Shown: positions 1-15,284, numbered from the stretch's first letter. The stretch: 15,491 bases of DNA from an uncultured Actinomycetes bacterium (GCA_963725665.1 CAVRZA010000012.1:1-15491), one strand, 5' to 3'. The notes: a model not told the origin generated them from the letters alone. Numbers and translations are program-made.

Positions 1-669
1 TACCTCAAGCATCTGCGTTCGGCCAATATCCCCGGCGTGCTCGATGTGCAGTTGCACGAAGCCACGGGGAGCTACGGGCTCATGGTCATCCAGCTCAAGA
101 AGGCGCACCCGTCGCAGCCGTGGCAGGCGCTGCACTCGGCGGCAGCGCTCGATCCGACCATCGGGAAGATGATCGTGGCCGTCGACGACGACATCGACCC
201 CAACGATGCCGATGCCGTCAACTGGGCGATGGCCTTCCGCATGCGTCCTCATCTGGATGTGCACATCCTGACGGGCAAGGCCTCGATCCTCGACCCCTCG
301 TCGGCGCCGCCCGAGGCGCACGTCGACGAGCAGCGCTTCCCGTCGCCCGTGGGCACGTCCTGCATCCTCATCGACGCCACCCGCAAGTGGGACTACCCAC
401 CCACCTCGCTCCCGCGCAAGGAGTTCATGGACAAGGCGTTGAGGCGGTGGGAAGAGGAGGGGCTGCCGCCGTTGTCGCTCAAGAAGCCGTGGTTCGGCTA
501 CGAGCTGGGCTACTGGACCGACGAGGCGCGTGAGGAGGCCAAGGCGGCGGTCGAAGGCGGCTATCTGAGCACCGGCTCTCGACTGCGATCCACACGCGAG
601 CCGGTGCCCTCGTCGGGGTTCGCGGACACTGAGAGCACAGAGACAAGAAGGGGAGAGTTAGATGGTTGA
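1..669 (+). CDS. UbiD-family (prFMN-dependent) decarboxylase/carboxylase, C-terminal part; the 5' end lies outside the window
   Basis: The frame is open from base 1 (YLKHLRSANIPGVLDV...). UbiD C-terminal motifs are present: KMIVAVDDDIDP, VNWAMAFR, LDPS and ILIDATRK. The TGA at 667-669 overlaps the next gene's start. This is a family-level call with unknown substrate. Confidence 0.9.
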   Translation, partial: YLKHLRSANIPGVLDVQLHEATGSYGLMVIQLKKAHPSQPWQALHSAAALDPTIGKMIVAVDDDIDPNDADAVNWAMAFRMRPHLDVHILTGKASILDPSSAPPEAHVDEQRFPSPVGTSCILIDATRKWDYPPTSLPRKEFMDKALRRWEEEGLPPLSLKKPWFGYELGYWTDEAREEAKAAVEGGYLSTGSRLRSTREPVPSSGFADTESTETRRGELDG

Positions 670-1888
670 TCTGTCGGTCGATTTCGCGGGGCTCAAGCTC
701 AAGAACCCGTTCATCATCGCCTCATCAGAACTGACGAACAAACTGGACAAGATCAAGATCGCCGAGGAGAACGGGGCTTCGGCCGTCAGCACCAAGCTCA
801 CCTTCCTCAAGGTGCCGCTGTACGCTCGGCCCTACCACATCATCGAGAAAGGCGGCGCCTTCTACTCGCCTTCCGGTGAGCGCATGCAGGTGGAGGACAC
901 CCAGGAGCTCATCCAGCAGTGCAAGGAGCAGACCGACCTCAAGATGATCGCCAACATGATGGGACCGGGCGAGGATCTCGAGGGGTGGGCGAAGCTGGGG
1001 CGCATGCTGGAGGAAGCCGGAGCCGACATGCTGGAGCTCAACATGTCGTGCCCGAACCTGGGCCTGATGGCCAAGCAGATGGGTGTGGACGAGGAGCCCG
1101 AGCTGGGCGCCACGCTGGGCAAGGACCCCGTTCTCGCCGGCAAGGTCTGTCAAGCCGTGGTCGATGCCGTCGGCATCCCGGTGATGCCCAAGATGACCCC
1201 CGAGGCCAACACCATGATGGTGTCGAAGTCCGTGGAGAAGAACGGGGCGGCGGCCGTGTCGGCCATCAACTGCCCGCAGTCGCTGCCGCCGCTCGACATC
1301 AACAACGGCGGCAGGCCGTTCTACCCGTCCACGGGCAACCAGTCCTACGCCGGATTGTGCGGCCCCTGGATCCGGCCACTCGCCTACCGACACGTGGCCC
1401 AGATGCGCACCATCTGTCCCGACCTGCCCATAGCCGGTGGCGGCGGGCTCATGAACTGGCGGCACTCGGTGGAGATGCTGATGTACGGCGCCACCGTCCT
1501 GACCTACTGCTCGCTGCTCTACCTCAAGGGCTACAAGGAGTTCACGAAGATCGAGCCGGGCGTGCGTCGGTTCATGGACCAGCACGGCTACGAGACCCTG
1601 GCCCACATGCGCGGCCTCGCGCTCAAGTACATCGTCACGCCCGGCGACGTCGACTACATCCCGATGCTGCCCGAGATCGACCTGGAGAAGTGCAACGGCT
1701 GCGGGCTCTGCGCGGCCCCCGGACACTGCGAGTGCATCGAGATCGTCGACGGCAAGGCCGTCCTGGTGAACTCCACCGACTGCTACTCATGCGCCGTCTG
1801 CTACTTCCTGTGTGCGCGTGAAGCCATCCGCATGAAGGAGGCGCCGATCGAGCAGACGCGGGCCGGCGTGGCGGCTCTGCCGCGATGA
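662..1888 (+). CDS. PreA-like dihydropyrimidine/dihydroorotate dehydrogenase-family FMN enzyme with a C-terminal 2x[4Fe-4S] domain
   Basis: N-terminal DLSVDFAGLKLKNPFIIAS, catalytic loop ELNMSCPN, PKMTP, AINC, GLCGPWIRPLA and GGGG. Ferredoxin motifs CNGCGLC...C and CYSCAVCYFLC. Purine-rich RBS (ggggagag) before ATG 662. Confidence 0.88.
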   Translation: MVDLSVDFAGLKLKNPFIIASSELTNKLDKIKIAEENGASAVSTKLTFLKVPLYARPYHIIEKGGAFYSPSGERMQVEDTQELIQQCKEQTDLKMIANMMGPGEDLEGWAKLGRMLEEAGADMLELNMSCPNLGLMAKQMGVDEEPELGATLGKDPVLAGKVCQAVVDAVGIPVMPKMTPEANTMMVSKSVEKNGAAAVSAINCPQSLPPLDINNGGRPFYPSTGNQSYAGLCGPWIRPLAYRHVAQMRTICPDLPIAGGGGLMNWRHSVEMLMYGATVLTYCSLLYLKGYKEFTKIEPGVRRFMDQHGYETLAHMRGLALKYIVTPGDVDYIPMLPEIDLEKCNGCGLCAAPGHCECIEIVDGKAVLVNSTDCYSCAVCYFLCAREAIRMKEAPIEQTRAGVAALPR

Positions 1889-1904
1889 CCCGCCGGGGAG
1901 AGGG

Positions 1905-2813
1905 ATGGTGTCGATGAAGGACTTCGAATACCTCTGTCCGTCGTCGCTCGAGGAGGCGTGCGCCGCGCTTGCCGGCACGGACGGCGCCGGCGCGAGGGAC
2001 GGTCCGGTCAAGGCACTGGCGGGCGGCACCGATCTTCTCGTGCAGCTGAAGCTGGGGAGCCTGCAGCCGCGGGCGCTGATCAGCCTCAAGAATGTGCCCG
2101 GTCTCGCCTTCGTGCGCCTCGAGGACGACGGCGCACTCGTCATCGGCGCCGCCACCACCCTGGCGGCCGTCGAGAACTCGCCCGACGTGCAGCGCGCGTT
2201 CCCGGCCGTCGCCGAAGCGGCGGCCTGCATCGGATCGGTGCAGGTGCGCAACCGGGCGACCGTGGGTGGGAATCTGTGCAACGCGGCCCCGTCGGCCGAC
2301 ACGGCGCCTATCCTGATCGCCGCCGGCGCTGAGGCCATCATCACCGACGGCCGGGTCGAGCGCGCGGTACCGGTGGAGGACTTCTTCACCGGACCGGGCG
2401 AGACCGTTATCAGGCGGGGAGAGCTGCTCAAGGCCGTGCGCGTGCCGCCGGCACCCGTGGGCAGTTTCTCCAGGTACTTTAAGACCTTCCGCTCGGCCAT
2501 GGACTGCTGCACCGTCGGGGTGGCCATCTTTGCCGTCTTCGATCTGGAGTCGATGATCGTCGGCGATGCCCGGCTGGCTCTTGGAGCCGTGGCTCCCACT
2601 CCCATCCGCGCGCGCGCCGCCGAGAGGATGGTGATCGGGCAGAAGCTCGACGAAGGGTTGATCGAGCGCACCGCCGCGCGCGCCGCTGAGGAGGCCCTGC
2701 CGATCAGCGACGTGCGCGCCTCGGCGGCCTACCGCAAGACGCTCGTTGAAGTCCTGTCCAGGAGAGCCATGACGGCGGCGCGCGCCTGGGCAGAGAAGGG
2801 AGCATCGCGGTGA
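1905..2813 (+). CDS. Xanthine dehydrogenase-family FAD-binding subunit (CoxM/CutM-like)
   Basis: FEYLCPSSLEEA, ALAGGTDL, IGSVQVRNRATVGGNLCNAAPSAD, LGAVAPTP and PISDVRASAAYR. RBS ggagaggg. The start could alternatively be ATG 1914. Confidence 0.95.
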   Translation: MVSMKDFEYLCPSSLEEACAALAGTDGAGARDGPVKALAGGTDLLVQLKLGSLQPRALISLKNVPGLAFVRLEDDGALVIGAATTLAAVENSPDVQRAFPAVAEAAACIGSVQVRNRATVGGNLCNAAPSADTAPILIAAGAEAIITDGRVERAVPVEDFFTGPGETVIRRGELLKAVRVPPAPVGSFSRYFKTFRSAMDCCTVGVAIFAVFDLESMIVGDARLALGAVAPTPIRARAAERMVIGQKLDEGLIERTAARAAEEALPISDVRASAAYRKTLVEVLSRRAMTAARAWAEKGASR

Positions 2814-3304
2814 AGCAGGAGTTGCACATCACGGTGAACGGCGATGAGTATCACCTGCTGGTCGATACGCACCGCACGCTCCTCGAGGTCATCCGCGACC
2901 AGATCGGGCTGACCGGCACGAAGAACGGCTGCGGTGCCGGCGAGTGCGGCGCCTGCACGGTGCTGGTCGAAGGCCGGCCGGTCAACTCCTGCCTCATGCT
3001 GGCCGTCGAGGCCGAAGGCCAGGAGGTGCTCACCATCGAAGGCCTGGCCAAGGGAGACGTGCTGCATCCGATCCAGAAGGCGTTCGTCGAGTGCGGCGCC
3101 ATCCAGTGCGGCTACTGCACGCCCGGCATGGTCCTGACGACCAAGGCCCTGCTCGACCGCACCCCCGACCCGACACGAGAGGAGATTCTCCAGGGCTTGC
3201 GAGGCAACCTCTGCCGGTGCACGGGCTACGTGAAGATCGTCGACGCGGTCAATGCCGCGAAGGCCCTGCTTGCGGAGGTGGAGTCCACATGGACGCGCGC
3301 GTAG
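2810..3304 (+). CDS. Xanthine dehydrogenase-family 2x[2Fe-2S] subunit (CoxS/CutS-like)
   Basis: GTKNGCGAGECGACTV, NSCL, QCGYCTPG and GNLCRCTGY. The GTG start overlaps the upstream TGA (GTGA). Confidence 0.96.
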   Translation: MKQELHITVNGDEYHLLVDTHRTLLEVIRDQIGLTGTKNGCGAGECGACTVLVEGRPVNSCLMLAVEAEGQEVLTIEGLAKGDVLHPIQKAFVECGAIQCGYCTPGMVLTTKALLDRTPDPTREEILQGLRGNLCRCTGYVKIVDAVNAAKALLAEVESTWTRA

Positions 3305-5664
3305 CCGACCGACACAGGCCCGTCTCTGTGAGCGACACCGTCATCGACCGAGAGACGCCGGTCATCGAGCGCGACACGGTCGTGCACGGGGAGACCCGCG
3401 TCATCGGCAAGGGGGTCCCTCGCATCGACGCCATCCCGAAGGTGTCCGGCGAGGCCGAGTACACCGTCGACCGCAAGATGCCGGGCATGCTCATCGGCAA
3501 GATCCTGCGCAGCCCGCATCCGCACGCCGTGATCAAGGCGATCGATACCTCGGCCGCCAAACGGCTCAAGGGCGTGCGCGCGGTCATCACCGCCGGCGAC
3601 GTGCCGGGCAACCTGTTCAGCTTCTTTCAGTGGCTCGCCGACAAGAACATCCTCTGCGTCGACAAGGTCCGCTACGTCGGTGACGAGGTCGCTGCCGTGG
3701 CCGCCGTCGACGAGGACACAGCAGAAGAGGCCCTCGAGCTGATCAAAGTCGAGTACGAGCCGCTGCCCGCCGTGCTCAGCATCGAGGAAGCGCTGCGGCC
3801 GGGGGCGTCTTTGGTGCACGACGACAAGGAGAGCAACGCTACCTGGCGCGTCGAGCGTCTCTTCGGCGACCCCGACGCCGCCCTCGCCGAGTGCGACTAC
3901 GTGGTCGAAGGCACCTACGTCACACGCCAGGTGGCGCACGCCTGTCTCGAGGTCTCCAACTGCATCGCGCAGTGGGACAAGAAGGATCGCCTCACGATCT
4001 GGACTACCACCCAGGCGCCCCACACGCAGAAGCAGGAGGTGGCCCGCGTCCTGGGCATCCCGCAGCGCAACGTACGCATCATCAACTCGTACATGGGCGG
4101 CGGCTTCGGGTCGAGGCTGGTGATGGACATGAAGCTCCCCATCGCTGCCGTTCTGTCGCGCATCACGGGGCGCCCGGTGCGCATCGTCAACACGCGCAGC
4201 GAGGAGTTCACGACCGCCAAGGCCCGCTACCCGTACACCATGCACTTGAAGACCGGCGCCACGAAGGACGGCAGGATCCTGGTGCGCGACCTGAAGCTGA
4301 TCGGCGACGCCGGCGCCTACCACGACAAGGGGCCCGCTACGGTGAACTTCTCGAGCATGATGTTCGGCACGCTCTACAACGTCCCCAACATCCGCTTCGA
4401 GGGGCAGCTCGTCTACACCAACAAGGAGATGGGCACGGCGTTCCGGGGCTTCGGCAACCCGCAGGTGACGTTCGCCACCGAGTCGCAGATCGACGAGCTG
4501 GCCGAGAAGATGGGCATTGATCCGCTCGAGCTGCGCCTCAGAAACGCCAACCGGCCCATGGAGACCACCTTCTGCGGCGCCGAGGTCGATGGCTGCGGCA
4601 TGACCGATTGCATGCATGCCGCCGCCGAAGCCATCGAGTGGGAGCGCAAGAGGAGCGAGAAGAGGCCGCTGCGCGGGGTCGGACTCGCCAACATGGTCCA
4701 CACCGGCGGCGGCGGCCGCTTCTACGGCTACAACTCGGCCGAGGCGTTCGTCAAGCTGTCAGACGAGGGCACCGTGACGCTGATCACGTCGGCCCTCGAC
4801 ATGGGTCAGGGCGCCCACACCGCCATGGCGCAGATCGCCGCCGAGGAGCTCGGCGTGCGCATGAGCGACATCAACGTCCTCTCCAACGATACCGACCTCA
4901 CCCCCTACGACCTGGGCTCCTGGGGGAGCCGGGCCAGCTTCATGAACGGCAATGCCGTGCTGGCCGCCGCGCGTGACGCCAAGAAGGTGCTCGTCGCCGC
5001 CGCGGCAGAGATGCTGGAGGCCGACCCCGACCACATCGTCATCGAGGACAGCCGCGTCTGGGTCCAGGGCTCCGAGGAGAGGCACGAACTGGCCGAGATC
5101 GTCGATCACGCCGTCAACCAGCACGGATCGACGATCTCGGGCACCGGCCGCTTCGTCGACAGGCTGCCCGAGGGCTACACGATCCCCACCGCGTTCGCCA
5201 AGAACATCCCCTGCTTCTCGTTCGGCACGCAGGCCGTCGAGGTCGAGATCGACGACGAGACGGGGCAAGTAAGGGTGCTGAAGGTGGCCGCCGCGCACGA
5301 GACCGGCACGACCATCAACCAGACCATGGCCGAGGGTCAGATCGAGGGCGCCGTCGCGCAGGGGATCGGCTTCGCCCTGATGGAGGAGCTCGTTCACGAG
5401 AACGGCCGGGTGGTGAACGACCGCTTCCTCGACTACAAGATCCCCAACATCGGCGACATGCCCGAGGTCGTGGCGATCTGCGTCGAGAGCGTGGGCACCG
5501 ACGGGCCGTTCGGCGCCAAGGGCATCGGCGAGCCCGGTCTGGTGCCCACGGCCCCGGCCATCGCCAATGCCGTGTTCGACGCCATCGGCGTGCGCTTCCA
5601 CGAGCTCCCCATCACCCGGGAGAAGGTCCTCGAAGCGCTCGGGGAACGGCGCGAGGCGACCTAG
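3289..5664 (+). CDS. Xanthine dehydrogenase-family molybdopterin-binding large subunit (about 791 aa)
   Basis: The likely start is ATG 3289 after ggaggtggag, not the ORF-track start at 2944, which overlaps the 2Fe-2S gene. Motifs: ILRSPHPHA, DKVRYVGDEVAAVAA, TTQAPH, MGGGFGSR, AFRGFGNPQ, DMGQG, EGQIEGA, DYKIP and GPFGAKGIGEP (catalytic Glu). Confidence 0.95.
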   Translation: MDARVADRHRPVSVSDTVIDRETPVIERDTVVHGETRVIGKGVPRIDAIPKVSGEAEYTVDRKMPGMLIGKILRSPHPHAVIKAIDTSAAKRLKGVRAVITAGDVPGNLFSFFQWLADKNILCVDKVRYVGDEVAAVAAVDEDTAEEALELIKVEYEPLPAVLSIEEALRPGASLVHDDKESNATWRVERLFGDPDAALAECDYVVEGTYVTRQVAHACLEVSNCIAQWDKKDRLTIWTTTQAPHTQKQEVARVLGIPQRNVRIINSYMGGGFGSRLVMDMKLPIAAVLSRITGRPVRIVNTRSEEFTTAKARYPYTMHLKTGATKDGRILVRDLKLIGDAGAYHDKGPATVNFSSMMFGTLYNVPNIRFEGQLVYTNKEMGTAFRGFGNPQVTFATESQIDELAEKMGIDPLELRLRNANRPMETTFCGAEVDGCGMTDCMHAAAEAIEWERKRSEKRPLRGVGLANMVHTGGGGRFYGYNSAEAFVKLSDEGTVTLITSALDMGQGAHTAMAQIAAEELGVRMSDINVLSNDTDLTPYDLGSWGSRASFMNGNAVLAAARDAKKVLVAAAAEMLEADPDHIVIEDSRVWVQGSEERHELAEIVDHAVNQHGSTISGTGRFVDRLPEGYTIPTAFAKNIPCFSFGTQAVEVEIDDETGQVRVLKVAAAHETGTTINQTMAEGQIEGAVAQGIGFALMEELVHENGRVVNDRFLDYKIPNIGDMPEVVAICVESVGTDGPFGAKGIGEPGLVPTAPAIANAVFDAIGVRFHELPITREKVLEALGERREAT
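3334..3411 (+). repeat. Imperfect 39-nt tandem duplication in the N-terminal extension of the Mo subunit
   Basis: gacaccgtcatcgaccgagagacgccggtcatcgagcgc and gacacggtcgtgcacggggagacccgcgtcatcggcaag, translating to DTVIDRETPVIER and DTVVHGETRVIGK. Confidence 0.6.
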
Positions 5665-5727
5665 CCGCGCGGGGGGATGCGCCCGACATGGCCGCGCCCG
5701 GGGATGCGATCGACATGGCCGTGCGCG
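5657..5727 (+). repeat. 27-nt imperfect tandem repeat (about 2.6 copies) across the Mo-subunit stop and yqeC start
   Basis: cgacctagccgcgcggggggatgcgcc, cgacatggccgcgcccggggatgcgat and cgacatggccgtgcgcg. Confidence 0.7.
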
Positions 5728-6551
5728 CCCACGCCGTCGAGTCGCTCACCGTCGCCCTCGGTCTCGGGGATCGGGAGCTGGTGGCGCTGGTCGGCGGCGG
5801 AGGCAAGACCAGCGCCCTGCGTTTGCTCGCCGGAGAGCTCGCGGCGAGCGGAGCGCGCGTCGGCGTGACCACGACGACGGCCATGTTCCTGCGGGACATG
5901 GCCGCCGTCGGGCCGGTGGTCATGAGCGCGGGCGGCGGGGTCCTTGTCGACGGAGTGAGGAAAGCTTTGGCGAAGGGACAGACGGTCGCGGTAGCGCGCT
6001 CCGCGGTCGAAGGCGGCAAGGTCGCGGGTCTGTCTCCGGCTGCCGTCGACGAGCTGTGGGAGGAGGGCATGGTCGACTACCTCATCGTCGAGGCCGACGG
6101 CAGCCGGGGCAAGTCGTTGAAGGCGTTCGGCCCTCACGAGCCTCAGGTGCCGGACGCGAGCACGACGATCGTCCAGGTCGCCGGCCTGGACGCGATCGGG
6201 GCTCCGCTCAGCGACGCCTGCGTGCACAGGGCGGAGACGCTGGCGACAGTGCTGGCCGTGCCGATGGGCTCCGAGCTGACCACGCGCGTCTTCGCTGACG
6301 CGATGCGGGCGCAGGTGCGGCGTCTGCGGCGAGCCCAGAGGCCGTGCCGTATCGTCGTCTTGCTGAACAAGGCCGACGGACCGGACCAGCAGGCCTCTGG
6401 GCTGGCGGTGGCACGGGAGCTGCTTGCCGATGCTCGCGGCTCAGACTGTGCGCCAGGTGTACGCGCCGACAGGCGTCCCGACTCCGTGGTCGTGGCGAGT
6501 CTTGGGGAGCGGCGGTTCGCCTGGGTGTCGTCGACCGAGGTGTGTGCGTAG
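5688..6551 (+). CDS. yqeC: Selenium-dependent molybdenum hydroxylase accessory protein YqeC
   Basis: P-loop-like LVGGGGKTS, VTTTT, and the YqeC-type DYLIVEADGSRGKSLKA...HEPQVP and GLDAIG. Context next to mocA, xdhC and yqeB. The start is ATG 5688 or ATG 5715, duplicated by a tandem repeat. Confidence 0.88.
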   Translation: MAAPGDAIDMAVRAHAVESLTVALGLGDRELVALVGGGGKTSALRLLAGELAASGARVGVTTTTAMFLRDMAAVGPVVMSAGGGVLVDGVRKALAKGQTVAVARSAVEGGKVAGLSPAAVDELWEEGMVDYLIVEADGSRGKSLKAFGPHEPQVPDASTTIVQVAGLDAIGAPLSDACVHRAETLATVLAVPMGSELTTRVFADAMRAQVRRLRRAQRPCRIVVLLNKADGPDQQASGLAVARELLADARGSDCAPGVRADRRPDSVVVASLGERRFAWVSSTEVCA

Positions 6552-7172
6552 GTGGTCGCCGAGGATGAACGGAGAGGCGCCGAGGTCTCCGTCGCGGCCA
6601 TCGTGCTGGCGGCCGGGCGGGCCACCCGCATGGGGGGACAGAAGCTGCTGCTGTCGCTCGGGGGACGGCCGCTTGTGCAGTGGGCCGTCGACGCCGCCCT
6701 GGGCTCGAAGGCCAGCGGCACGGTCGTCGTGGTCGGCCACGAGGCGCCGCGGGTCGCCGAGGTCCTTGCGGGCTGGCCGGTGACGGTTGTCGTAAACTCG
6801 CACTACGAGCAGGGATTGAGTACTTCGCTCCAGGCAGGGGTGAGGGCGACCGGCGGGGCGTGCGACGCGGCGATCTTCGTGCTCGGCGACCAGCCGTTCG
6901 TGACCTCGGCCGTGCTGGACCGCCTGATCGAGCGGTTCGCGGAGACCGGGAAGGCGGTCGTCCGGCCCCTGGTGGCCGGCCGGCCGGCCAATCCGGTGCT
7001 GATGAGCGCGGAGCTGTTCCCGGAGATCCTCGGGCAGCACGGAGACCTCGGCGGCCGTGAGATCATCGCAAGGCACCCCGGCGAGATCTGCCTGGTCGCG
7101 GTGGACGACCCGCGCGTGGGCATGGACATCGACTCGGTGGAAGACTACGAGGCGGCGAGGGAGAACGCATGA
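6552..7172 (+). CDS. mocA: Molybdenum cofactor cytidylyltransferase (MocA/YgfJ family)
   Basis: AIVLAAGRATRMGGQKLLL, N..YEQGLSTSL, LGDQP, GDLGGR and DID. It starts immediately after the yqeC stop and sits beside a xanthine-oxidase-family enzyme, which in bacteria commonly uses MCD. Confidence 0.88.
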   Translation: MVAEDERRGAEVSVAAIVLAAGRATRMGGQKLLLSLGGRPLVQWAVDAALGSKASGTVVVVGHEAPRVAEVLAGWPVTVVVNSHYEQGLSTSLQAGVRATGGACDAAIFVLGDQPFVTSAVLDRLIERFAETGKAVVRPLVAGRPANPVLMSAELFPEILGQHGDLGGREIIARHPGEICLVAVDDPRVGMDIDSVEDYEAARENA

Positions 7173-8011
7173 GGGCTGAGGGACTCTACGCGAAGGTGGC
7201 CGAGCTCACCCGGGAGGGGGCTCGCTTCGTGGTGGCCACCATCACCGACGTCGAGGGCTCCAGCCCCCGCGGCGTGGGCACCAAGATGCTGGTCCTGAGA
7301 GACGGTACGACCTTCGAGACCATCGGCGGCGGCGTGCTCGAGAAGCAGGTCGTCGCGGACGCCCTCGCCTGCTTGGCCGCGGGAGTCTCCCGCAGCGAGC
7401 GCTACGAGCTGCGGGAAGAAGGCGATCATGCGCTCGGCGGGCTGTGCGGCGGCGAAGCCACGGTCTTCTACGAGGTGCACGCGCCCGAGTGCACGCTCCT
7501 CATCGTGGGAGCGGGCCACGTAGGCCAGGCGTTGTGCCGGTTCGCGGCGCTGCTCGACTTCCGCGTGGTCGTCCTCGACTCTCGGGAGGACATGATCTCG
7601 CCCGAGCGCTTCCCGCAGGCGGATCAGCGCATCTGCGGCGACCCGGCGCGGACGCGCGAGCTGTTCGACATCGACGAGGACACCCACGTCGTCATCGTCA
7701 CCCACGGTCACGTGCACGACAAAGAGGCGCTGCGCTCGGTCGTCGACTCGCCGGCCGCCTACGTAGGCATGATCGGCAGCCGCAACAAGGTGCGCGCCGT
7801 CTTCGCCCAGCTTCGGGAGGAAGGCGTGAGCGCCGAGCTGCTCGACCACGTCCACTCACCCATCGGGCTCGACATTGGGGCCGAGACGCCGGCCGAGCTC
7901 GCTCTCTGCATCATGGCCGAGATCGTGGCCGCCCGGTACGGCAAGCTGGCGCCGCGCACGTCCGCCTCGGCCGCCGGGCGGGCGGCAGCCGAGGAGGTCC
8001 CCCCGGAGTGA
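7169..8011 (+). CDS. xdhC: XdhC/CoxI-family molybdenum cofactor insertion chaperone
   Basis: GSSPRGVGTKM, TIGGGVLE, GGLCGG, IVGAGHVG, VTHGH..D, YVGMIGSRNK and PIGLDIGAETPAELALCIMAEI. ATGA overlap with mocA. The symbol is used in the Rhodobacter accessory-factor sense. Confidence 0.92.
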   Translation: MRAEGLYAKVAELTREGARFVVATITDVEGSSPRGVGTKMLVLRDGTTFETIGGGVLEKQVVADALACLAAGVSRSERYELREEGDHALGGLCGGEATVFYEVHAPECTLLIVGAGHVGQALCRFAALLDFRVVVLDSREDMISPERFPQADQRICGDPARTRELFDIDEDTHVVIVTHGHVHDKEALRSVVDSPAAYVGMIGSRNKVRAVFAQLREEGVSAELLDHVHSPIGLDIGAETPAELALCIMAEIVAARYGKLAPRTSASAAGRAAAEEVPPE

Positions 8012-8970
8012 TCCCGCCAGCGTTCAGCGGCCGCGACGCCGCCGGGCGTCCCGTCGCGCTCGTCAAGGGTGCGGGCGACCTGGCCACCGGAGTGGCTCTG
8101 CGCCTCCTGCGCTCGGGGTTCGCCGTGGTCTTGACCGAGATCCCTCAGCCCACCGTCGTGCGACGGACGGTGGCCTTCGCCGAGGCCGTGTACGAGGGCC
8201 GGACGGTGGTCGAAGGGGTGGAAGGAGTGAGGGTCGAGGCGGCCGAGCGGATCGACGACCTCCTGGTCCGCGAAGCGGTGCCCGTGGTCGTCGATCCCGA
8301 GGCGGCGGTGCTGCGTCCGCTCAGGCCCGCCCTGCTCGTCGACGCCATCGTGGCCAAGCGTAACCTGGGCACGCGTCTGGGTGACGCCCCGGCGGTGGTC
8401 GCCCTGGGGCCGGGGTTCGTCGCCGGGCGCGACGTGCACGCCGTGATCGAGACCAAGCGCGGTCACACGTTAGGCCGGGTCATCTTCGAGGGAGAGGCCC
8501 TGCCCAACACCGGCATCCCCGGAGAGGTGGGCGGCTTCGCTGAGGAGCGTGTGCTGCGTGCTCCCGGCGCGGGGGTCTTTCGCGGCGCGCGCGAGATCGG
8601 CGATCGGGTGAGTCGGGATGAGATCGTCGGCTACGTCGACGATCTCCCGGTCCCCGCGCGCCTGGACGGCGTGCTGCGTGGCTTGCTTCACTCGGGTGTC
8701 GCGGTGGGCGCCGGCTTCAAGGTGGGCGACGTCGATCCCCGCGCGCAGCGTGAGCACTGTTTCGTCGTCTCAGACAAGGCGCTGGCCATCGCCGGTGGAG
8801 TGCTCGAGGCCGCGTGCACCCTCCTCGGCGGCGTGCGCTTTGCGATGACAGAGACGCGACTGTATGAACGTGACGACAGAGACGCGACGGTGAGAGACGT
8901 GGCCGTCAGAGAGGCGACAGTGGGAGACGCGACAGAGATCGACCGGAGGTCCGAAGGAGGTAGGCAGTGA
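8008..8970 (+). CDS. yqeB: EF2563/YqeB-family selenium-dependent molybdenum hydroxylase system protein
   Basis: The likely start is GTG 8008 (GTGA overlap with xdhC, gaggagg upstream) rather than 7444. Motifs: KGAGDLATGVA.RL, P.VVRRTVAF, DAIVAKRNLGT, LGPGF.AG, ETKRGH.LGR, NTGIPG, ERVLRAP, LRGL, KVGDVDPR and SDKALAIAGGVLEA. Confidence 0.92.
   Translation: MIPPAFSGRDAAGRPVALVKGAGDLATGVALRLLRSGFAVVLTEIPQPTVVRRTVAFAEAVYEGRTVVEGVEGVRVEAAERIDDLLVREAVPVVVDPEAAVLRPLRPALLVDAIVAKRNLGTRLGDAPAVVALGPGFVAGRDVHAVIETKRGHTLGRVIFEGEALPNTGIPGEVGGFAEERVLRAPGAGVFRGAREIGDRVSRDEIVGYVDDLPVPARLDGVLRGLLHSGVAVGAGFKVGDVDPRAQREHCFVVSDKALAIAGGVLEAACTLLGGVRFAMTETRLYERDDRDATVRDVAVREATVGDATEIDRRSEGGRQ
8878..8937 (+). repeat. 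15-nt imperfect tandem repeat (4 copies) in the yqeB 3' tail
   Basis: agagacgcgacggtg, agagacgtggccgtc, agagaggcgacagtg and ggagacgcgacagag (RDATV/RDVAV/REATV/GDATE). A fifth out-of-phase copy, agagacgcgactgta, lies at 8850-8864. Confidence 0.7.
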
Positions 8971-9968
8971 AGTCCTATAGCACACTCATCAAGGGCGCAC
9001 GCCTTGTCGTGGAGCGTTGCTTCGCCGTGAAGGAGGGCGACGCGTTGCTCATCATCGCCGACGAGGACCACGAACGTGAGGCCAAGGCCATCGCCGGGGT
9101 GGCGTACTCGCACGGCGCGTACCCCACGATCGCCGACGTCTCGCACCACGTGAGCGCCGCGCTGGCGTCGATGGCCGTTGCCATGGAGCCGTCCAAGACG
9201 GTGGCGGCCGCCATGAAGGCCTCCGACGTGATCATCATCACGACCAACCTCGAGTGGGCGAACCGCTTCGCCCACGTGAACCCGGTCGCCGAGAGTTGCG
9301 CCCTGGGTGCCAAGATCGGGTCGGTCGAGGAGGGCATGGCGGACTGGGACCTCACCTTCGACGACATCGACGCGATCGTGGGTCGGGCCGAGAAGCTCAT
9401 GGCGGCCATGGAGGGCGCTCGGTGGTGTCGCGTCACGAACCCGTCGGGCACCGACGTGCGCATCTGCATCGAAGATCGCCCGCCGCTCAAGGTTGTGCCC
9501 ATCAAGGGCGCCGGCGAGATGATGGGTCCCGTGCCGCTGTGGGGCGAGGTCGCCTACGCGGCGCGCGAGGACAAGACCGTCGGCACGATCGTGGTCGACG
9601 GCATCATGCTCGGCGTCGGGGTCTACGGGTCGCTCAAGGAGCCCATCACGTGGACCATCGAGGACGGACGCGCCGTGAAGATCGAGGGCGGGCCCGAGGC
9701 GGAGCGTCTGAGGAGCGTCATCGCCGATTCCGACGACATGGCCGACGTGGTCGCCGAGTTCGCCATCGGGACGAGCCACAAGGAGGTCTTCGGATCACCC
9801 TCCGAGAAGGGCATGATGGGCACGACGCACTTCGCCCTGGGCGACAACTCGCACGCCTATCCGGGAGGACAGAGCCGCAGCCGGTTGCACCTCGACGGCT
9901 CGGTACGCGACGTGACCATCGAGGTCGACGGGAAGGTCGTCATCAAGGACGGTGCCCTTGTCATCTGA
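8967..9968 (+). CDS. Peptidase M29/aminopeptidase-T-like metallohydrolase
   Basis: T.PSGTD, P.WGEV, GTIVVDG, EFAIGT, EK..GTTHFALGDN and SRLHLDG. The E/E/E/H/H/D metal-ligand pattern appears retained. GTGA overlap with yqeB and RBS aggagg. Confidence 0.82.
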   Translation: MKSYSTLIKGARLVVERCFAVKEGDALLIIADEDHEREAKAIAGVAYSHGAYPTIADVSHHVSAALASMAVAMEPSKTVAAAMKASDVIIITTNLEWANRFAHVNPVAESCALGAKIGSVEEGMADWDLTFDDIDAIVGRAEKLMAAMEGARWCRVTNPSGTDVRICIEDRPPLKVVPIKGAGEMMGPVPLWGEVAYAAREDKTVGTIVVDGIMLGVGVYGSLKEPITWTIEDGRAVKIEGGPEAERLRSVIADSDDMADVVAEFAIGTSHKEVFGSPSEKGMMGTTHFALGDNSHAYPGGQSRSRLHLDGSVRDVTIEVDGKVVIKDGALVI

Positions 9969-9969
9969 G

Positions 9970-10357
9970 ATGTCGGAGAGAGTAGTCGTGGTCGGGCTCG
10001 ACGCCGGCAGGCGCAGCGACATCCCCGGCGGGAGCTGGGTCTGCGAACTGGTCTCGGGACCGCGCACCGGAGCGAGCGCCAGCATGCTCGGCTTCTCGAG
10101 CTGGGCTCCGGGAGCGGACACCAAGCAGCTCGTGCACGAGGTCGACGAGCTCTGCTACATCGTGGGTGGCGAGGGCAAGCTCTCCGTGGGCGAGAGAGCT
10201 CGTCCCGTTCCGCGCCGGGGAGGCGGTGTTCGTCCCAGCCGGCGTGCCGCATGGCGTGGTGAACGACTCGACGGCCGAGATGACCATGGTGTACGTGTTC
10301 TCGCACCCCGAGTACCCACCCACGCGCGAGGCCACCGAGGCTGAAAGAGGCGCGTGA
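9970..10357 (+). pseudogene. Cupin-domain protein interrupted by a frameshift near 10192-10198 (pseudogene, recoding event or sequence error)
   Basis: ATG 9970 lies 1 nt after the upstream stop. Cupin motif 1 (PG....LVHEVDELCYIVGGEG) is in frame +1. Motif 2 (GEAVFVPAGVPHGVVN) is in frame +2 and ends at TGA 10355-10357. The frames switch in ggc-gagagag-ctc. Confidence 0.8.
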
Positions 10358-10376
10358 TCGGGCCGGGTCTGCCGTC

Positions 10377-11006
10377 GTGGGTCGTTCCGACGAGCGGCGG
10401 TCGCGGCTGAGTCGCCGGGGCGCGCGCGGCGCCGCGCTCGTCGCCCTAGCCCTCGCCGCGCTCGTCGTACTGGCCGTCACGCTTCTCGGCGCCTGCTCGG
10501 AGTCCGCCCCAGGCGCGTCGTCTTCGCCCTCGTCGGTGAGCGACGCGTTTCGAGCTGCGCATCCGGCCGGCGGCGTCCCGCCGGGGCTCAAGAGAAGCGG
10601 CGACGCGAGCCGCGCCGCGCAGCTGCTCGCGGCTCGCGTCGCCGCCGATGGCATCCTGCTCCCCGGCTGGCTGCCGCCAGACTACGGTCTTGCGGCGCCG
10701 TACGTCGGCATCGGGAGTGGCGTCGCCCTGCCCAACCCCTACGTCTGGGACGGCGGCTACCGCGTCTCCTACACCGACGGTCGCGGCCTGATCCTGGTGC
10801 ACGTGGGTTCAGGGCGCCTGCCCGGCGAGGGTGCCTGGCAGGCGCTGGCGCGCACGTGGCGCGGGGCTGCCGTACGGATGCGTGTCGCGAACGGACTCAC
10901 GACGGTGGCCTCCCGCGCTGGCGCGCGGCCGGTCGCCGTCGTCGCGGCCGGAGTCCCGACCCCACGGGAGACGGCCGTCCGCGTGCTCCGCAGTCTTCGC
11001 AGGTGA
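10377..11006 (+). CDS. Hypothetical lipoprotein
   Basis: Arg-rich n-region, long hydrophobic h-region and lipobox LGAC (Cys40), followed by an S/P/A-rich linker and a globular part containing LLPGWLPPDY. The start codon is uncertain. Confidence 0.65.
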   Translation: MGRSDERRSRLSRRGARGAALVALALAALVVLAVTLLGACSESAPGASSSPSSVSDAFRAAHPAGGVPPGLKRSGDASRAAQLLAARVAADGILLPGWLPPDYGLAAPYVGIGSGVALPNPYVWDGGYRVSYTDGRGLILVHVGSGRLPGEGAWQALARTWRGAAVRMRVANGLTTVASRAGARPVAVVAAGVPTPRETAVRVLRSLRR

Positions 11007-11070
11007 CGGCGGTCGGCTGACCGAGAGTGCTGGGCGGCGGGTCGTCTCCTCGACGAAGCGAATTCTCCGC

Positions 11071-12546
11071 TTAGACCCGGCCTTCGTCTACGGAGGGCGG
11101 CCCGCCTTCGCCGCACAACCGAGCGATGACGCCGGCGTACACGTCGACCGCGGCTTCGAGCTGCGCCACCGGCACGTGCTCGTTCGGGCGGTGGATGTTG
11201 CCCGTCGCCTCGCCCGGTCCGAAGACGACCACGTCCATTCCGGCTCCCTGGTACACCGACGCTTCGGTCGTGCCGCTCTTGAGCTCACTGTCGGTGGGCA
11301 GGCCGAGCGAGCGCAGCGTCGTGGTGAGCGCCGCCAGGGTCGCCGATTCGTCGGCCGCGAGGAAGGGCGGCGACTCGAGGAGCCGCCGGACCTCGACCAC
11401 GCATCGGCTCTCCGTGCAGCCCTCCTTGAGTCGCTGCTCGTACTCGCCGAGAGCGGCGCCCGGCCGGCCGGCAGACACCGGGCCGGCGGGCACCGAGCGG
11501 ACATCGATCACGTACTCGAGCCGGCCGGACGCCAGCCACAGAAGCCCGTTGTTGACGGTGCTCCACGGCGGCTCGAAGCCCTCGACGACCTCCCCGCGCA
11601 GCTCGGATTCAAGCTGGCGCGTCGCCTCGTGTACGCGTAACAGCAGCGTGATGAGGTCGGGCGAGGTGAGGGGCTCGTTCACAAGCGCGTCGGGCGCCAA
11701 GGGAGACACCTCGACGCCCACCCCGCCGACGCGAGACACGTCGGGTCGCTCCGCGGCGCACATCACGAGTCGGCAGGAGGCCGCCACCTTGTTGACGAGG
11801 TCGCCGCCCTCGATGCCGACCACTTCGACAGGCCGCTCGCTCGACCGTCTGCCCGCGAGGTCGCTCAGCAGGTCGAGGCAGGCGTCGTTGGCCGACGCCC
11901 CGACATGTGGCTGCGACGAGTGAGCCGCCCTGCCCGTGAAGGTGAGGCTCCAGAGGGGAAGTGGCGACGGCGACCTCACCGCCGCGTCGGCGGTGACGCG
12001 GAACTCGACGTAGCCCTTGTGAGCCGGAGTCGGGCGCAGGCCGCTCGGCTCGCCGACGAGCGCGAGGGCCGGTAGGGGCCGCAGCGCCGTGACGAGCAGC
12101 TTCGCCCCCCAGCGGCCCGTCTCCTCGCCGTAGGTGCCGGCGAGCAGCACCGGGCGCTGGAGCGGCTCCTCGCGGAGCCGCTCCAGCGCCGCCAGCTTGC
12201 AGAGGAAGTCGATCTTCACGTCGGCGGCGCCCAGGCCGTACAGCCGACCCTCGTGGAGTGTGAGGGCGAAGGGGTCGCCCCCCGTGCGCGTCCACAACAC
12301 CGGGTCGCCGGGCGGCACGGTATCGAGGTGGGTCGTCAGCAAGAGGGCGCCGGACCGCGGCTCGCCCCGCCACGCCAGCAGGTTGTACTGTCGCTGCCCG
12401 TCGTGGACTTCCTCCTGCAGGGTCGTCGTCAGGCCCGCTTGCGAGCAGAGCGGCGCGAGAAACTCGACTACGGGAAGGTCGGAGACTGAGGAGCGGCTGT
12501 CGATGGCGACGAGCTCGCGCGCGGCGGCGACGACGTCAAGCGACAT
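11071..12546 (-). CDS. M20-family metallopeptidase/deacylase (ArgE/DapE-like), about 491 aa
   Basis: THLDTVP, LYGLGAADVK, GEETG, VGEPS, HKG, GRAAHSSQP, GTTEAS and FGPG...IHRPNEHV. ATG 12546 (MSLDVVAAARELVAIDS) fits typical M20 N-termini. The frame stays open to ATG 12714. Confidence 0.88.
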   Translation of the reverse strand: MSLDVVAAARELVAIDSRSSVSDLPVVEFLAPLCSQAGLTTTLQEEVHDGQRQYNLLAWRGEPRSGALLLTTHLDTVPPGDPVLWTRTGGDPFALTLHEGRLYGLGAADVKIDFLCKLAALERLREEPLQRPVLLAGTYGEETGRWGAKLLVTALRPLPALALVGEPSGLRPTPAHKGYVEFRVTADAAVRSPSPLPLWSLTFTGRAAHSSQPHVGASANDACLDLLSDLAGRRSSERPVEVVGIEGGDLVNKVAASCRLVMCAAERPDVSRVGGVGVEVSPLAPDALVNEPLTSPDLITLLLRVHEATRQLESELRGEVVEGFEPPWSTVNNGLLWLASGRLEYVIDVRSVPAGPVSAGRPGAALGEYEQRLKEGCTESRCVVEVRRLLESPPFLAADESATLAALTTTLRSLGLPTDSELKSGTTEASVYQGAGMDVVVFGPGEATGNIHRPNEHVPVAQLEAAVDVYAGVIARLCGEGGPPSVDEGRV

Positions 12547-12719
12547 GGGAGCCGGGCTCAGCGGCGAGGGCTTGAATGCGACCGGGCACGGTGGTCCTCG
12601 GGATCTTCTCCTCCTCAGGGTCGGGGTGCCGAGCAGGTCACGCGCTACGCCAAGCACGTCGCTCCGCACTCCATGGACGCCCCGAAGCGCACCTGCACGC
12701 CGGGGGGCTCTCATCCGGA

Positions 12720-12729
12720 TGCTATAGTA
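12720..12729. promoter_or_regulatory. Candidate overlapping divergent -10 elements for the SDR (+) and M20 (-) genes
   Basis: The + strand has TG-C-TATAGT (extended -10, 12720-12728). The - strand has TACTAT (12729-12724). This is the only AT-rich patch in the divergent intergenic region. Confidence 0.5.
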
Positions 12730-12804
12730 GAAGGCCTGATGAGCGAACCCCTCGCCTCATTGTCGATCGGCGTCCCCGCGACCGCCGACACCTGCTGAGG
12801 GCGG

Positions 12805-13581: not shown

Positions 13582-13610
13582 GGGGTCAAACCCGGGACAG
13601 TCAAGCGCAG

Positions 13611-14231: not shown

Positions 14232-14420
14232 CCCGGCCCCGCCTCCGCGGCACGACGTCGGGTGCTCTCGTGCGGCGGCCTAATCCTCCCGGCGTCGTCT
14301 TCTATTCCGTGGTGCGGCTCCCCCGGCAAACGGCTTCTGCAACGCAGCATCAGGGCAAGAAGGCTGGCGGTGAGAACGACGCGGGCCGTGCCGGCCCGCA
14401 TTCTGCAGAAGGAGGACGTC

Positions 14421-14735: not shown

Positions 14736-14765
14736 CCACACGCCGGGCCGGGCGTTGCCGCGGTC

Positions 14766-14793
14766 GCGCGGCGAGGCGAAGGCCTCGCCGCGC
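14766..14793. terminator. Perfect 12-bp GC hairpin between convergent genes; candidate bidirectional terminator
   Basis: gcgcggcgaggc-gaag-gcctcgccgcgc. There is no U-tract, as is common in high-GC bacteria. It lies between the stops at 14735 (+) and 14848 (-). Confidence 0.6.
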
Positions 14794-14847
14794 CCCGGGT
14801 CGAAGCCGACGTCCAGCGTCACCCCGCCCGGCGCCGGGGCGGCGTCG

Positions 14848-15201: not shown

Positions 15202-15284
15202 CACCCACCTCCTGCGGGCGCGTTGTTGCACCCGTACCGGAGTGTTCCCGCAGCGGCCAGAGTGCTGCGCCGGCGGCTGCCTGG

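Follow-up and report, generated by a model that had tools for sequence, protein, structure and literature searches.

What is degraded by a run of eleven co-oriented genes that occupies positions 1-10357 of a 15,491-nucleotide stretch of DNA from an uncultured Actinomycetes bacterium (CAVRZA010000012.1:1-15491, assembly GCA_963725665.1; the whole stretch is here called the window)? The genes code for a UbiD-family decarboxylase, a PreA-like reductase, a molybdenum (Mo) enzyme of three subunits, the maturation proteins YqeC, MocA, XdhC and YqeB, a metalloenzyme with the fold of NicX, and a small cupin. From the sequence alone, an initial annotation proposed that they form a selenium-dependent, oxygen-independent catabolic pathway for a carboxylated aromatic or heteroaromatic compound. 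That overall interpretation is supported by the analysis reported here, and the context of the cluster sharpens it toward vitamin B6. We conclude, with a probability of about 55%, that the operon forms the lower half of a cluster that breaks down vitamin B6 without oxygenases. The substrate is quite probably vitamin B6 or a very close pyridine analogue. The term oxygen-independent refers to the types of enzyme encoded, and not to a proven lifestyle of the host.

Upstream context of the operon

The window is the whole of a small contig (C12, 15.5 kb, G+C content 68-70%) of the host genome G000, which comprises 3.73 Mb in 12 contigs, with a completeness of 97.5% and a contamination of 5.04%, and belongs to an uncultured soil or sediment actinobacterium. 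Over its full length C12 matches positions 302136-317692 of contig C1, with a nucleotide identity of 88-96%. The NicX-like proteins of the two copies are 100% identical and the PreA-like proteins 95%, while the C1 copy carries about a dozen frame changes, in the genes for UbiD, the FAD, Fe-S and Mo subunits, MocA, XdhC and YqeB. We read the pair as two assemblies of one locus, arising from strain variants or long-read consensus errors, and not as a functional duplication; the contamination estimate fits this view. The C1 copy is useful because it supplies the upstream context that is missing from the window, which contains only the lower, ring-attacking half of a larger cluster. The initial gene list needs three corrections: the UbiD gene is a 3' fragment only, the cupin gene is frameshifted, and the window is an entire duplicated contig.

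On the same strand of C1, the genes upstream are, in order, an ADP-forming acyl-CoA synthetase, a BMP-family ABC transporter (substrate-binding protein (SBP), fused ATPase and two permeases), a class V aminotransferase, an aldehyde:ferredoxin oxidoreductase (AFOR1), a frameshifted Zn-alcohol dehydrogenase, a ThiS/MoaD-like protein, a GntR/UTRA regulator, an Fe-alcohol dehydrogenase and a second AFOR (AFOR2), followed by UbiD and the genes of the window. Of the genes that the initial annotation had suggested looking for in this region, a transporter and a regulator are present, ubiX lies elsewhere in the genome, and no PreT partner was found near the cluster. No CoA ligase adjoins the Mo genes. 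An Rfam scan of the window and the preceding 20 kb revealed no riboswitch or other RNA, and a promoter and terminator scan of positions 9800-13000 gave nothing useful.

Gene families were assigned by Pfam and NCBIfam profile scans, with scores judged against the curated cut-offs. In these scans the SBP has a single match, to NF047927, a "putative B6 ABC transporter substrate-binding protein" (362.3 bits, cut-off 400). The top model for the aminotransferase is pyridoxamine-pyruvate transaminase (332.3 bits, cut-off 600), with the next model at 166.9 bits. Its best solved homologue, at 261 bits against 139 for the next, is 2z9u, which we take to be the pyridoxamine-pyruvate aminotransferase of Mesorhizobium loti. 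Among the 14 Thermoleophilia loci whose upstream sequence extends to about 10 kb, 13 have the order transaminase, AFOR1, Fe-alcohol dehydrogenase, AFOR2 and UbiD there; the remaining one, L022, shows no transaminase in range. Locus L022 also has a Liv-type ABC transporter between AFOR2 and UbiD (L022:3616-8047; Peripla_BP_6, BPD_transp_2 and two ABC_tran open reading frames (ORFs), several of them frameshifted), which is a second transporter type for the cluster.

Two types of cluster

The PreA-like protein, used as a genomic query, returned 18 loci. The same gene order is found in 17 of these, all from Thermoleophilia or related metagenome-assembled genomes (MAGs), and the eighteenth (L039) is a partial match at 26% identity with no cluster gene. 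There are some variants among the 17: L029 and L030 have no local Mo module, L026 lacks the four maturation genes, and XdhC was not detected in L023, L032 and L033, which are among the 14 order-sharing loci with YqeB. Since the order recurs in 17 of 18 loci and the core is found in other phyla, the arrangement is not a matter of chance.

An alignment of NicX-like homologues was also used as a genomic query, and the best 80 of 324 loci were taken; the NicX-like protein is present in all 80 by design, because the query was its own alignment. A further locus search was limited to the best 80 of 184 matches. When 28 query proteins were mapped onto the 80 loci, they split cleanly into two groups, A (32 loci) and B (48 loci; L071-L073 and L075-L119).

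Group A includes the host, and its NicX-like proteins are 60-84% identical to that of the window. It contains Thermoleophilia, Desulfobacterales, SAR324, other Deltaproteobacteria, Spirochaetes, Aerophobetes, Chloroflexia, Clostridia and Syntrophomonadaceae, and thus covers Actinomycetota, Desulfobacterota, SAR324, Spirochaetota, Chloroflexota, Bacillota and Aerophobetes. The combination of genes is therefore conserved well beyond the host, both in the PreA-like scan and in these 32 loci from several phyla. PreA-like copies (60-91% identical) occur in 27 of the 32 loci and UbiD in 29, the loci that miss one or the other being cut by contig ends. AFOR2 is present in 22, and the large Mo subunit is found at 50% identity or more in 19. 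The cluster holds two or three AFORs, which are of an O2-sensitive type, together with a ferredoxin. In a Desulfobacterales member (L056), a gene between UbiD and the NicX-like gene has as its best model 5-formyl-3-hydroxy-2-methylpyridine-4-carboxylate 5-dehydrogenase (335.6 bits, cut-off 500), and the transaminase and SBP of this locus score 399.3 (cut-off 600) and 329.2 bits (cut-off 400).

The NicX-like proteins of group B are 53-57% identical to that of the window, and come from Thermomicrobiales and other Chloroflexota, Gaiellaceae, Solirubrobacterales and a few others. The two groups show a reciprocal replacement of genes. PreA-like and UbiD genes are absent from all 48 group B loci. 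Instead, a luciferase-like oxidoreductase lies directly upstream of the NicX-like gene in 46 of the 48, and a class II aldolase-type protein, which takes the place of UbiD as decarboxylase, lies downstream of it in 41; neither is found in any group A locus. A xanthine-oxidase-type enzyme is present in 33 of the group B loci, with a large subunit that is 30-50% identical, and none of the 48 has YqeB, YqeC, MocA or XdhC. Conversely, no group A locus has a pyridoxal 4-dehydrogenase, and a lactonase homologue occurs in one of the 32.

It is group B that ties the NicX-like gene to vitamin B6 with scores above the cut-offs. In L094, the NicX-like gene and cupin sit with a B6 SBP (405.2 bits, cut-off 400), a 4-pyridoxolactonase (355.2, cut-off 325) and a pyridoxal 4-dehydrogenase of the short-chain dehydrogenase/reductase (SDR) type (362.7, cut-off 325). 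The formyl-acid dehydrogenase model is matched at 435.2 bits (cut-off 500), and Mlr6791 (78.8 bits), the decarboxylase for which PMC3538738 cites its reference 16, is related to the class II aldolase-type protein. Group B (for example L094:8206-18846) is thus a "hybrid" vitamin B6 catabolic cluster, with a classical upper pathway, in which a Mo hydroxylase, the luciferase-like oxidoreductase, the NicX-like protein and the cupin replace any recognizable pair of oxygenase and hydrolase. Group A shares with it the NicX-like protein, the cupin, the transaminase and the type of SBP, and has AFORs for the NAD-dependent aldehyde steps, UbiD for the aldolase-type decarboxylase and the PreA-like protein for the luciferase-like enzyme. 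These replacement patterns between the two cluster types are observed directly, as are the gene content, the family memberships and the conservation.

A further replacement is seen within group A. In eight of the 32 loci (L041, L044, L046, L047, L065, L067, L069 and L070), the position of the Mo enzyme and its maturation genes, between the PreA-like and NicX-like genes, is taken by a third AFOR (AFOR3, 676 residues) and a GlpC-like CCG/4Fe-4S protein (679 residues; L044:5905-10004 for the pair). Three genomes of this kind were checked, and contain only 40-44% identical paralogues of the large Mo subunit, whereas in two relatives that lack Mo genes in the cluster a large subunit of 74-75% identity is encoded at another place in the genome. 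This suggests that AFOR3 replaces the Mo enzyme functionally.

Enzymes of the proposed ring-attacking half

The eleven plus-strand genes of positions 1-10357 overlap or abut as first described, and every junction was confirmed. Going along the operon there is an 8-base overlap (662-669), a 16-base gap (1888/1905), a 4-base overlap (2810-2813), a 16-base overlap (3289-3304), a 23-base gap (5664/5688), an abutting pair (6551/6552), three 4-base overlaps (7169-7172, 8008-8011 and 8967-8970) and finally a single base between 9968 and 9970. The families assigned initially hold in the Pfam and NCBIfam scans (Table 1). Also expected by the initial annotation was that the enzymes would lie outside known clades, and in agreement with this no catalytic enzyme reaches the cut-off of a characterized family.

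The UbiD gene is truncated by the start of the contig, so that only its C-terminal 222 residues are in the window. The last 95 or so (about 127-222 of the fragment) form an extension past UbiD_C that has no Pfam match. The extension is 74-85% identical in Thermoleophilia relatives and absent from the 480-residue deltaproteobacterial UbiD. A full-length relative (L022:8113-10008) contains UbiD_N, UbiD and UbiD_C and scores 251.3 bits with TIGR00148 (cut-off 244.85). The nearest solved homologue is 6h6x (196.2 bits, E 8.7e-57, about 420 residues), which we take to be HmfF, the 2,5-furandicarboxylate decarboxylase of Pelotomaculum thermopropionicum, and thus an enzyme acting on a heteroaromatic dicarboxylate. 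A protein from this organism is listed beside C. basilensis HmfF in PMC12391406. The UbiX prenyltransferase is encoded outside the cluster, at G000:C2:49778-50353 (TIGR00421, 166.8 bits, cut-off 108.9). The proposed role of UbiD is that of a 3-hydroxy-2-methylpyridine-4,5-dicarboxylate decarboxylase.

The PreA-like protein has the fold of dihydroorotate and dihydropyrimidine dehydrogenases, with a C-terminal ferredoxin domain for two [4Fe-4S] clusters. PreA (NF006183) is its top NCBIfam model, at a score that falls short of the equivalog cut-off (216.8 against 335 bits). In an alignment to pig dihydropyrimidine dehydrogenase (DPD), the protein retains the NxSCP motif, which includes the catalytic Cys, as well as a second Asn, and differs at two other positions (Gln for Asn and Cys for Thr); we take the positions compared to be pyrimidine-binding residues. 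Neither the window nor the 20 kb of C1 sequence upstream contains a PreT (GltD-like) partner, and none occurs in the annotated loci L022, L044, L056 and L066. Since it also has a [4Fe-4S] domain of its own, the PreA-like enzyme probably draws its electrons from ferredoxin or the oxidative steps, and we propose that it reduces a hydroxylated pyridone ring. A 703-residue protein (P0224) that seemed to fuse the PreA-like protein to the FAD subunit, and so to provide a Rosetta-stone link, was discarded: its alignments alternate between conserved and Arg-rich nonsense stretches, which marks it as a frameshift artefact of an error-prone assembly.

The best model for the FAD subunit of the Mo enzyme is XdhB (230.8 bits, cut-off 310). 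It matches the beta subunit of 4-hydroxybenzoyl-CoA reductase in two partial stretches (113.8 bits, cut-off 404.55). In front of the start ATG (3289) of the large subunit stands GGAGGTGGAG. The closest model for this subunit is 4-hydroxybenzoyl-CoA reductase alpha (TIGR03194, 693.3 bits, cut-off 994.55), and it also lies below the cut-offs of all of the xanthine dehydrogenase (XDH) models (XdhA 601.2 against 780; PucD 521.6 against 783.65; Se_dep_XDH 395.1 against 830.45). Its matches among solved structures include 1rm6_A at 499 bits, and the nicotinate dehydrogenase subunits 3hrd_A (294.5 bits) and 3hrd_B (222.5 bits) are also among the solved homologues of the enzyme. We propose that it is a selenium-dependent hydroxylase of the free carbon adjoining the ring nitrogen.

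YqeB and YqeC beside an enzyme of the xanthine oxidase family are described as the signature of a selenium-dependent Mo hydroxylase in PMC2276186. Here both are well above their cut-offs, and their genes stand after the Mo genes and before the NicX-like gene. Such hydroxylases are known for purines and nicotinate (PMC2276186, PMC11448449, bioRxiv 10.1101/2025.04.24.650524). The link is stronger than first noted: YqeB is above cut-off in eight of 40 relatives of the host, the NicX-like protein is present in six of these, and in all six the two genes are adjacent. The NicX-like gene itself is patchy, being found in six of the 24 members of the host's family and in none of the 16 other members of the class. 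One YqeB above cut-off is found in each of the five deltaproteobacterial or Syntrophomonadaceae carrier genomes checked, and in two deltaproteobacterial versions YqeB, YqeC and MocA flank the cluster just past its transporter genes. The association of this clade of Mo enzymes with selenium-cofactor genes is therefore robust. Because the enzyme is matured by YqeC, MocA, XdhC and YqeB, it probably carries a labile selenium cofactor. The genome also encodes SelD (G000:C11:541083-541916; TIGR00476, 333.6 bits, cut-off 125) with one in-frame TGA, so that the host very probably makes selenocysteine proteins as well.

The predicted structure of the NicX-like protein (mean predicted local distance difference test score, pLDDT, 85.8) was compared with solved structures using Foldseek. 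The best match is NicX (7cn3; template modelling (TM) score 0.76, E 3e-22, 21% sequence identity), followed by the M29 aminopeptidases PepS, AmpT and AmpS (TM 0.63-0.71). The "M29-like hydrolase" of the initial annotation thus has the NicX fold; a match to Peptidase_M29 (PF02073) is present, although weak and limited to the N-terminus, and a hydrolase role is proposed. The protein has 939 homologues carrying PF26233, for which the Atlas name is NicX. CgnE, another family named in the Atlas, is a crocagin biosynthesis protein and was set aside as irrelevant to the cluster.

The Glu, His and Asp residues E264, E280, H288, H308 and D310 are invariant in the NicX-like proteins of both groups, and form a set that presumably resembles the two-metal hydrolase site of M29 enzymes. 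This favours hydrolysis, although it is not proof, and we propose that the protein is a ring-opening amidohydrolase; an O2-dependent dioxygenase like NicX is a live rival. The Fe(II) ligands of NicX are His265, Ser302, His318 and Asp320, according to PMC7910607. Two of the four are kept on alignment (H308 for His318 and D310 for Asp320), while Ser302 aligns with an invariant Ala (A290) and His265 with E264/F265 (Glu/Phe), so that the full set of four ligands is lacking.

Compared with the intact C1 copy, the cupin gene contains one extra base near 10195, which gives the listed ORF (9952-10344) an Arg-rich nonsense C-terminus; the conserved C-terminus continues in the +1 frame to a stop at 10357. 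When aligned with six orthologues, the H-E-x-x-E motif and the C-terminal motifs are conserved in the others. Beyond the operon lies a convergent gene for an M20 deacylase, whose best model is acetylornithine deacetylase (191.7 bits, cut-off 297.7). It is a conserved neighbour in the Thermoleophilia versions and is present in 17 of the 32 group A loci, and L066 has another M20 gene downstream of its Mo genes. It is possibly an amide or N-acyl hydrolase of the ring-opened product.

Table 1. Coordinates and profile matches of the genes in the window.
Feature	Position	Strand	Profile match or remark
UbiD-family decarboxylase (prenylated FMN, prFMN), 222-codon 3' fragment	1-669	+	UbiD_C 85.3 bits
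PreA-like FMN reductase, 408 aa	662-1888	+	DHO_dh 70.9; PreA model 216.8 bits
Mo enzyme, FAD-binding subunit	1905-2813	+	FAD_binding_5 161.2, CO_deh_flav_C 82.2 bits
Mo enzyme, [2Fe-2S] subunit	2810-3304	+	Fer2_2 114.8, Fer2 36.7 bits
Mo enzyme, molybdopterin-binding large subunit	3289-5664	+	MoCoBD_1 273, MoCoBD_2 268.7, Ald_Xan_dh_C 108.2 bits
YqeC	5688-6551	+	TIGR03172 153.2 (cut-off 73.05); Pfam YqeC 132.6 bits
MocA-like molybdenum cofactor cytidylyltransferase	6552-7172	+	TIGR03310 177.7 (cut-off 186.45, best model); NTP_transf_3 135.6 bits
XdhC-family maturation factor	7169-8011	+	XdhC_C 156.7, XdhC_CoxI 76.4 bits
YqeB	8008-8970	+	TIGR03309 357.8 bits (cut-off 220)
NicX-fold, M29-derived metalloenzyme, 333 aa	8967-9968	+	Peptidase_M29 31.5 bits, residues 6-63 only
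Small monocupin, about 128 aa, frameshifted	9970-10357	+	Cupin_2, weak: 19 bits, E 0.0011
ORF, 209 codons	10377-11006	+	no Pfam or NCBIfam match; between cupin and M20 genes
ArgE/DapE-like M20 deacylase, 547 aa, convergent	11071-12714	-	Peptidase_M20 110.5 bits
FabG-like SDR	12805-13581		NF009466 251.3 bits (cut-off 222)
ORF, 206 aa	13611-14231		no assignment
Overlapping ORFs	14270-15002	both
DUF498 protein	14848-15231	-

The remaining genes of the window (12805-15231) are not tied to the B6 cluster. The FabG-like SDR among them has a weak match (167.6 bits) to the model for the SDR-type pyridoxal 4-dehydrogenase. The ORF at 10377-11006, at most a putative gene, has stretches of 40-57% identity in relatives, but there they lie on the opposite side of the M20 gene.

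Proposed route, alternatives and known systems

From these genes we infer the substrate, a reaction for each enzyme, the order of the steps, the use of selenium by the Mo enzyme and independence of O2, as follows. Pyridoxamine would be imported and transaminated to pyridoxal, and AFOR1 would oxidize the 4-aldehyde to give 4-pyridoxate. An alcohol dehydrogenase would then oxidize the 5-hydroxymethyl group, and AFOR2 (in deltaproteobacterial loci the dehydrogenase homologue) would complete the oxidation to 3-hydroxy-2-methylpyridine-4,5-dicarboxylate, from which UbiD would remove the 4-carboxyl group to leave 3-hydroxy-2-methylpyridine-5-carboxylate. The Mo enzyme is expected to hydroxylate, with water, the sole free carbon beside the ring nitrogen, to form a pyridone with a 2,5-dihydroxypyridine pattern. 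A ring C=C bond of this product would be reduced by the PreA-like FMN/[4Fe-4S] enzyme, with electrons from the oxidative steps, and the resulting lactam would be hydrolyzed by the NicX-fold, M29-derived metalloenzyme, opening the ring. The cupin and the M20 deacylase may process the open-chain product. No ORF in the annotated loci was assigned to the ring-opening flavin oxygenase or to (E)-2-(acetamidomethylene)succinate hydrolase, although no model for either was searched.

Several points weigh against this route. In group A, including the host, every B6-specific model is below its cut-off (transaminase 332-399 against 600, SBP 329-362 against 400, dehydrogenase 336 against 500). The nearest solved relative of the NicX-like protein is an O2-dependent dioxygenase, and the cupin and M20 enzymes have no definite step. 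With only 30-50% identity between them, the large Mo subunits of the two groups are not orthologues. The eight AFOR3 loci could mean that an AFOR-type enzyme carries out the hydroxylation, or else that the job shared with the Mo enzyme is the oxidation of an aldehyde in the lower pathway, and not hydroxylation of the ring. All of the loci listed are from MAGs except L064 ("Candidatus Aerophobetes bacterium"). Finally, the host carries a haem-copper oxidase (COX1) and a cytochrome bd oxidase, and by gene content is therefore not an obligate anaerobe; COX1-family matches are also present in four of the five other cluster-bearing genomes checked. An argument for oxygen independence from the lifestyle of the host was tried and fails on these terminal oxidases, and anaerobic use of the cluster cannot be argued in this way.

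The dioxygenase fold and the oxidases lead to an alternative in which vitamin B6 is still the substrate but the ring is opened with O2. Here the NicX-like protein is an Fe(II) dioxygenase that cleaves a 2,5-dihydroxypyridine derivative made by the Mo enzyme from 3-hydroxy-2-methylpyridine-5-carboxylate; the PreA-like enzyme (in group B, the luciferase-like one) then reduces an open-chain enoate, and the M20 enzyme removes an N-acetyl group. Only two of the four iron ligands of NicX are present, however, and the invariant residues seem to resemble the two-metal site of M29 hydrolases. The group A gene is also co-operonic with AFORs, ferredoxin, a prFMN enzyme and selenium-cofactor genes, which is typical of anoxic metabolism, and COX1 is without a match in one carrier genome of 1.7 Mb, whose completeness is not given. 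On the other hand NicX is the best fold match, terminal oxidases are present in the host, the M20 enzyme most resembles N-acetyl deacylases, and the candidate active-site residues are all common to groups A and B, of which the B lineages are typical aerobes. The expected hydroxylation product also fits, by chemical inference, the 2,5-dihydroxypyridine pattern that NicX cleaves (PMC7910607). We consider both the dioxygenase step and these later steps unlikely, without dismissing them. It is distinctly less probable that the substrate is some other carboxylated N-heterocycle (a nicotinate, picolinate or dipicolinate derivative, or another pyridine), with the B6 matches reflecting family resemblance. 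The low scores of the group A models would be consistent with this, as would the use of pairs of UbiD and Mo hydroxylase on other compounds such as lumazine, described in PMC12391406; yet each B6 model is the top or sole match for its protein. The transaminase, two aldehyde oxidoreductases, alcohol dehydrogenases and decarboxylase fit the three substituents of B6, and group B pairs the NicX-like protein and cupin with a pyridoxal 4-dehydrogenase and a 4-pyridoxolactonase that are above cut-off. The logic of hydroxylation, reduction and hydrolysis is that of nicotinate fermentation, which speaks for another pyridine.

Two more distant classes of substrate are both very improbable. For furanic aldehydes (5-hydroxymethylfurfural (HMF) or furfural), 2,5-furandicarboxylate produced by AFORs and alcohol dehydrogenases would lose a carboxyl group to an HmfF-like UbiD, and furoate would be the substrate of an HmfABC-like Mo hydroxylase. 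HMF also has one aldehyde and one hydroxymethyl group, and the best solved homologue of UbiD, 6h6x, is taken to be HmfF; but 196 bits over about 420 residues seems short of orthologue-level similarity, the conserved transaminase would not be needed, and no CoA ligase adjoins the Mo genes. Moreover the SBP matches only the B6 model, and the ring-opening enzyme has the fold of a pyridine-cleaving enzyme. For purines and pyrimidines (a variant of the 2,8-dioxopurine or clostridial xanthine routes, or reduction of orotate or uracil), one may cite the pyrimidine reductase fold of the PreA-like protein and the BMP-family SBPs, which often bind nucleosides. Known selenium-dependent Mo hydroxylases act on purines as well as nicotinate, in the sources cited above, and the clostridial genes for xanthine conversion to formiminoglycine were still to be identified in 2012 (PMC3519856). 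Against this, the PreA and XDH models are below cut-off, the SBP matches B6 only, and the set of AFORs, alcohol dehydrogenases and transaminase has no role there. In addition, general annotation by Pfam, NCBIfam and tblastn, with no dedicated search, assigned no YgeW, YqeA, YgeX, SsnA, HyuA or YgfK in the window, the C1 flank or the fetched loci. A pyrimidine or orotate route, prompted by the PreA fold and the M20 gene, was dropped because the transaminase, SBP and dehydrogenase score best on B6 models. A route from xanthine to formiminoglycine, with UbiD as a 4-aminoimidazole-5-carboxylate decarboxylase, is kept as a weak rival only, since it needs no PreA-type reductase, AFOR or transaminase.

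The most likely explanation is therefore a conserved and horizontally spread cluster by which vitamin B6 is mineralized using enzymes of the anaerobe type. A bolder version is a serious possibility, though somewhat short of an even chance: that this is the first oxygen-independent route of B6 mineralization, spread by gene transfer among uncultured anaerobic or facultative bacteria of at least six phyla, with four new enzyme functions. With the same reservation, the four would be a prFMN dicarboxylate decarboxylase, a selenium-dependent hydroxymethylnicotinate hydroxylase, a PreA-type pyridone reductase that works without PreT, and a hydrolytic enzyme of the NicX fold.

The only two routes of vitamin B6 breakdown described so far both open the ring by oxygenases (PMC3538738). 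A literature search, with most subscription journals outside its scope, found no degradation of B6 that uses a molybdenum hydroxylase, UbiD or AFOR, and no anoxic degradation of B6. If the proposed route is correct, it provides a testable set of genes for the mineralization of B6 in anoxic soils, sediments or guts. It would also add a fourth class of substrate for labile-selenium Mo hydroxylases, after purines, 2,8-dioxopurine and nicotinate, widen the substrate range of UbiD to pyridine dicarboxylates, and give a function to the widespread NicX-like family of 939 homologues, which is annotated as "aminopeptidase". Under the bolder version, AFOR3, as a tungsten or molybdenum enzyme with a GlpC-like partner, would represent the first hydroxylase of the AFOR type to act on an N-heterocycle. 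The clusters also offer a natural experiment in non-orthologous replacement (UbiD and aldolase-type, PreA-like and luciferase-like, xanthine-oxidase-type and AFOR-type enzymes), and the scavenging and destruction of B6 could affect vitamin cross-feeding in microbial communities.

Among known systems, B6 degradation pathway I (Pseudomonas sp. MA-1 and Mesorhizobium loti MAFF303099) shares the proposed substrate and the upper intermediates through the 5-carboxylate. As outlined in PMC3538738, it runs from pyridoxamine through pyridoxal, 4-pyridoxate, the 5-formyl acid and the 4,5-dicarboxylate to the 5-carboxylate. The cluster resembles it in having homologues of the transaminase, the B6-type SBP and, in some loci, the 5-formyl-acid dehydrogenase. 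It differs in that AFORs appear to oxidize the aldehydes in group A and UbiD would act in place of the class II aldolase-type decarboxylase. The Mo hydroxylase, PreA-like, NicX-like and cupin proteins appear to take over from the flavin oxygenase and from (E)-2-(acetamidomethylene)succinate hydrolase, for which, as noted, no model was searched.

The fermentation of nicotinate by Eubacterium barkeri begins with hydroxylation beside the ring nitrogen, with oxygen from water, by a labile-selenium Mo enzyme, followed by reduction of the pyridone by an Fe-S flavoprotein and hydrolytic opening. The proposed logic of the cluster is the same, but its reductase is PreA-like rather than a 6-hydroxynicotinate reductase, and its hydrolase has the NicX/M29 fold rather than that of an amidohydrolase-fold enamidase. 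The Mo subunit of the cluster is closer to 4-hydroxybenzoyl-CoA reductase (499 bits), and there is an extra UbiD step and an aldehyde-oxidizing upper pathway. NicX of Pseudomonas putida, a 2,5-dihydroxypyridine 5,6-dioxygenase, is similar in fold (TM 0.76), in the His-x-Asp pair of the metal site and in its class of substrate, which fits the predicted intermediate; the differences are the 21% identity, the two unconserved iron ligands, the anaerobe-type context and the proposed hydrolase role.

With clostridial xanthine dehydrogenase and purine hydroxylase, and with 2,8-dioxopurine dehydrogenase, whose pathway is described in bioRxiv 10.1101/2025.04.24.650524, the cluster shares YqeB, YqeC and MocA beside a xanthine-oxidase-family enzyme and a SelD in the genome. 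Its large subunit is far from the selenium-dependent XDH model (395.1 bits against a cut-off of 830.45), however, and the partner genes of the purine route are not annotated in the cluster. Finally, the lumazine route uses a Mo dehydrogenase and a UbiD (PMC12391406), and both its xanthine-8-carboxylate decarboxylase and HmfF with HmfABC combine a UbiD for heteroaromatic acids with a hydroxylase of the xanthine oxidase family, as the cluster does. The cluster differs from these in having no CoA ligase beside the Mo genes, a modest UbiD similarity (196 bits), and other partners and context.

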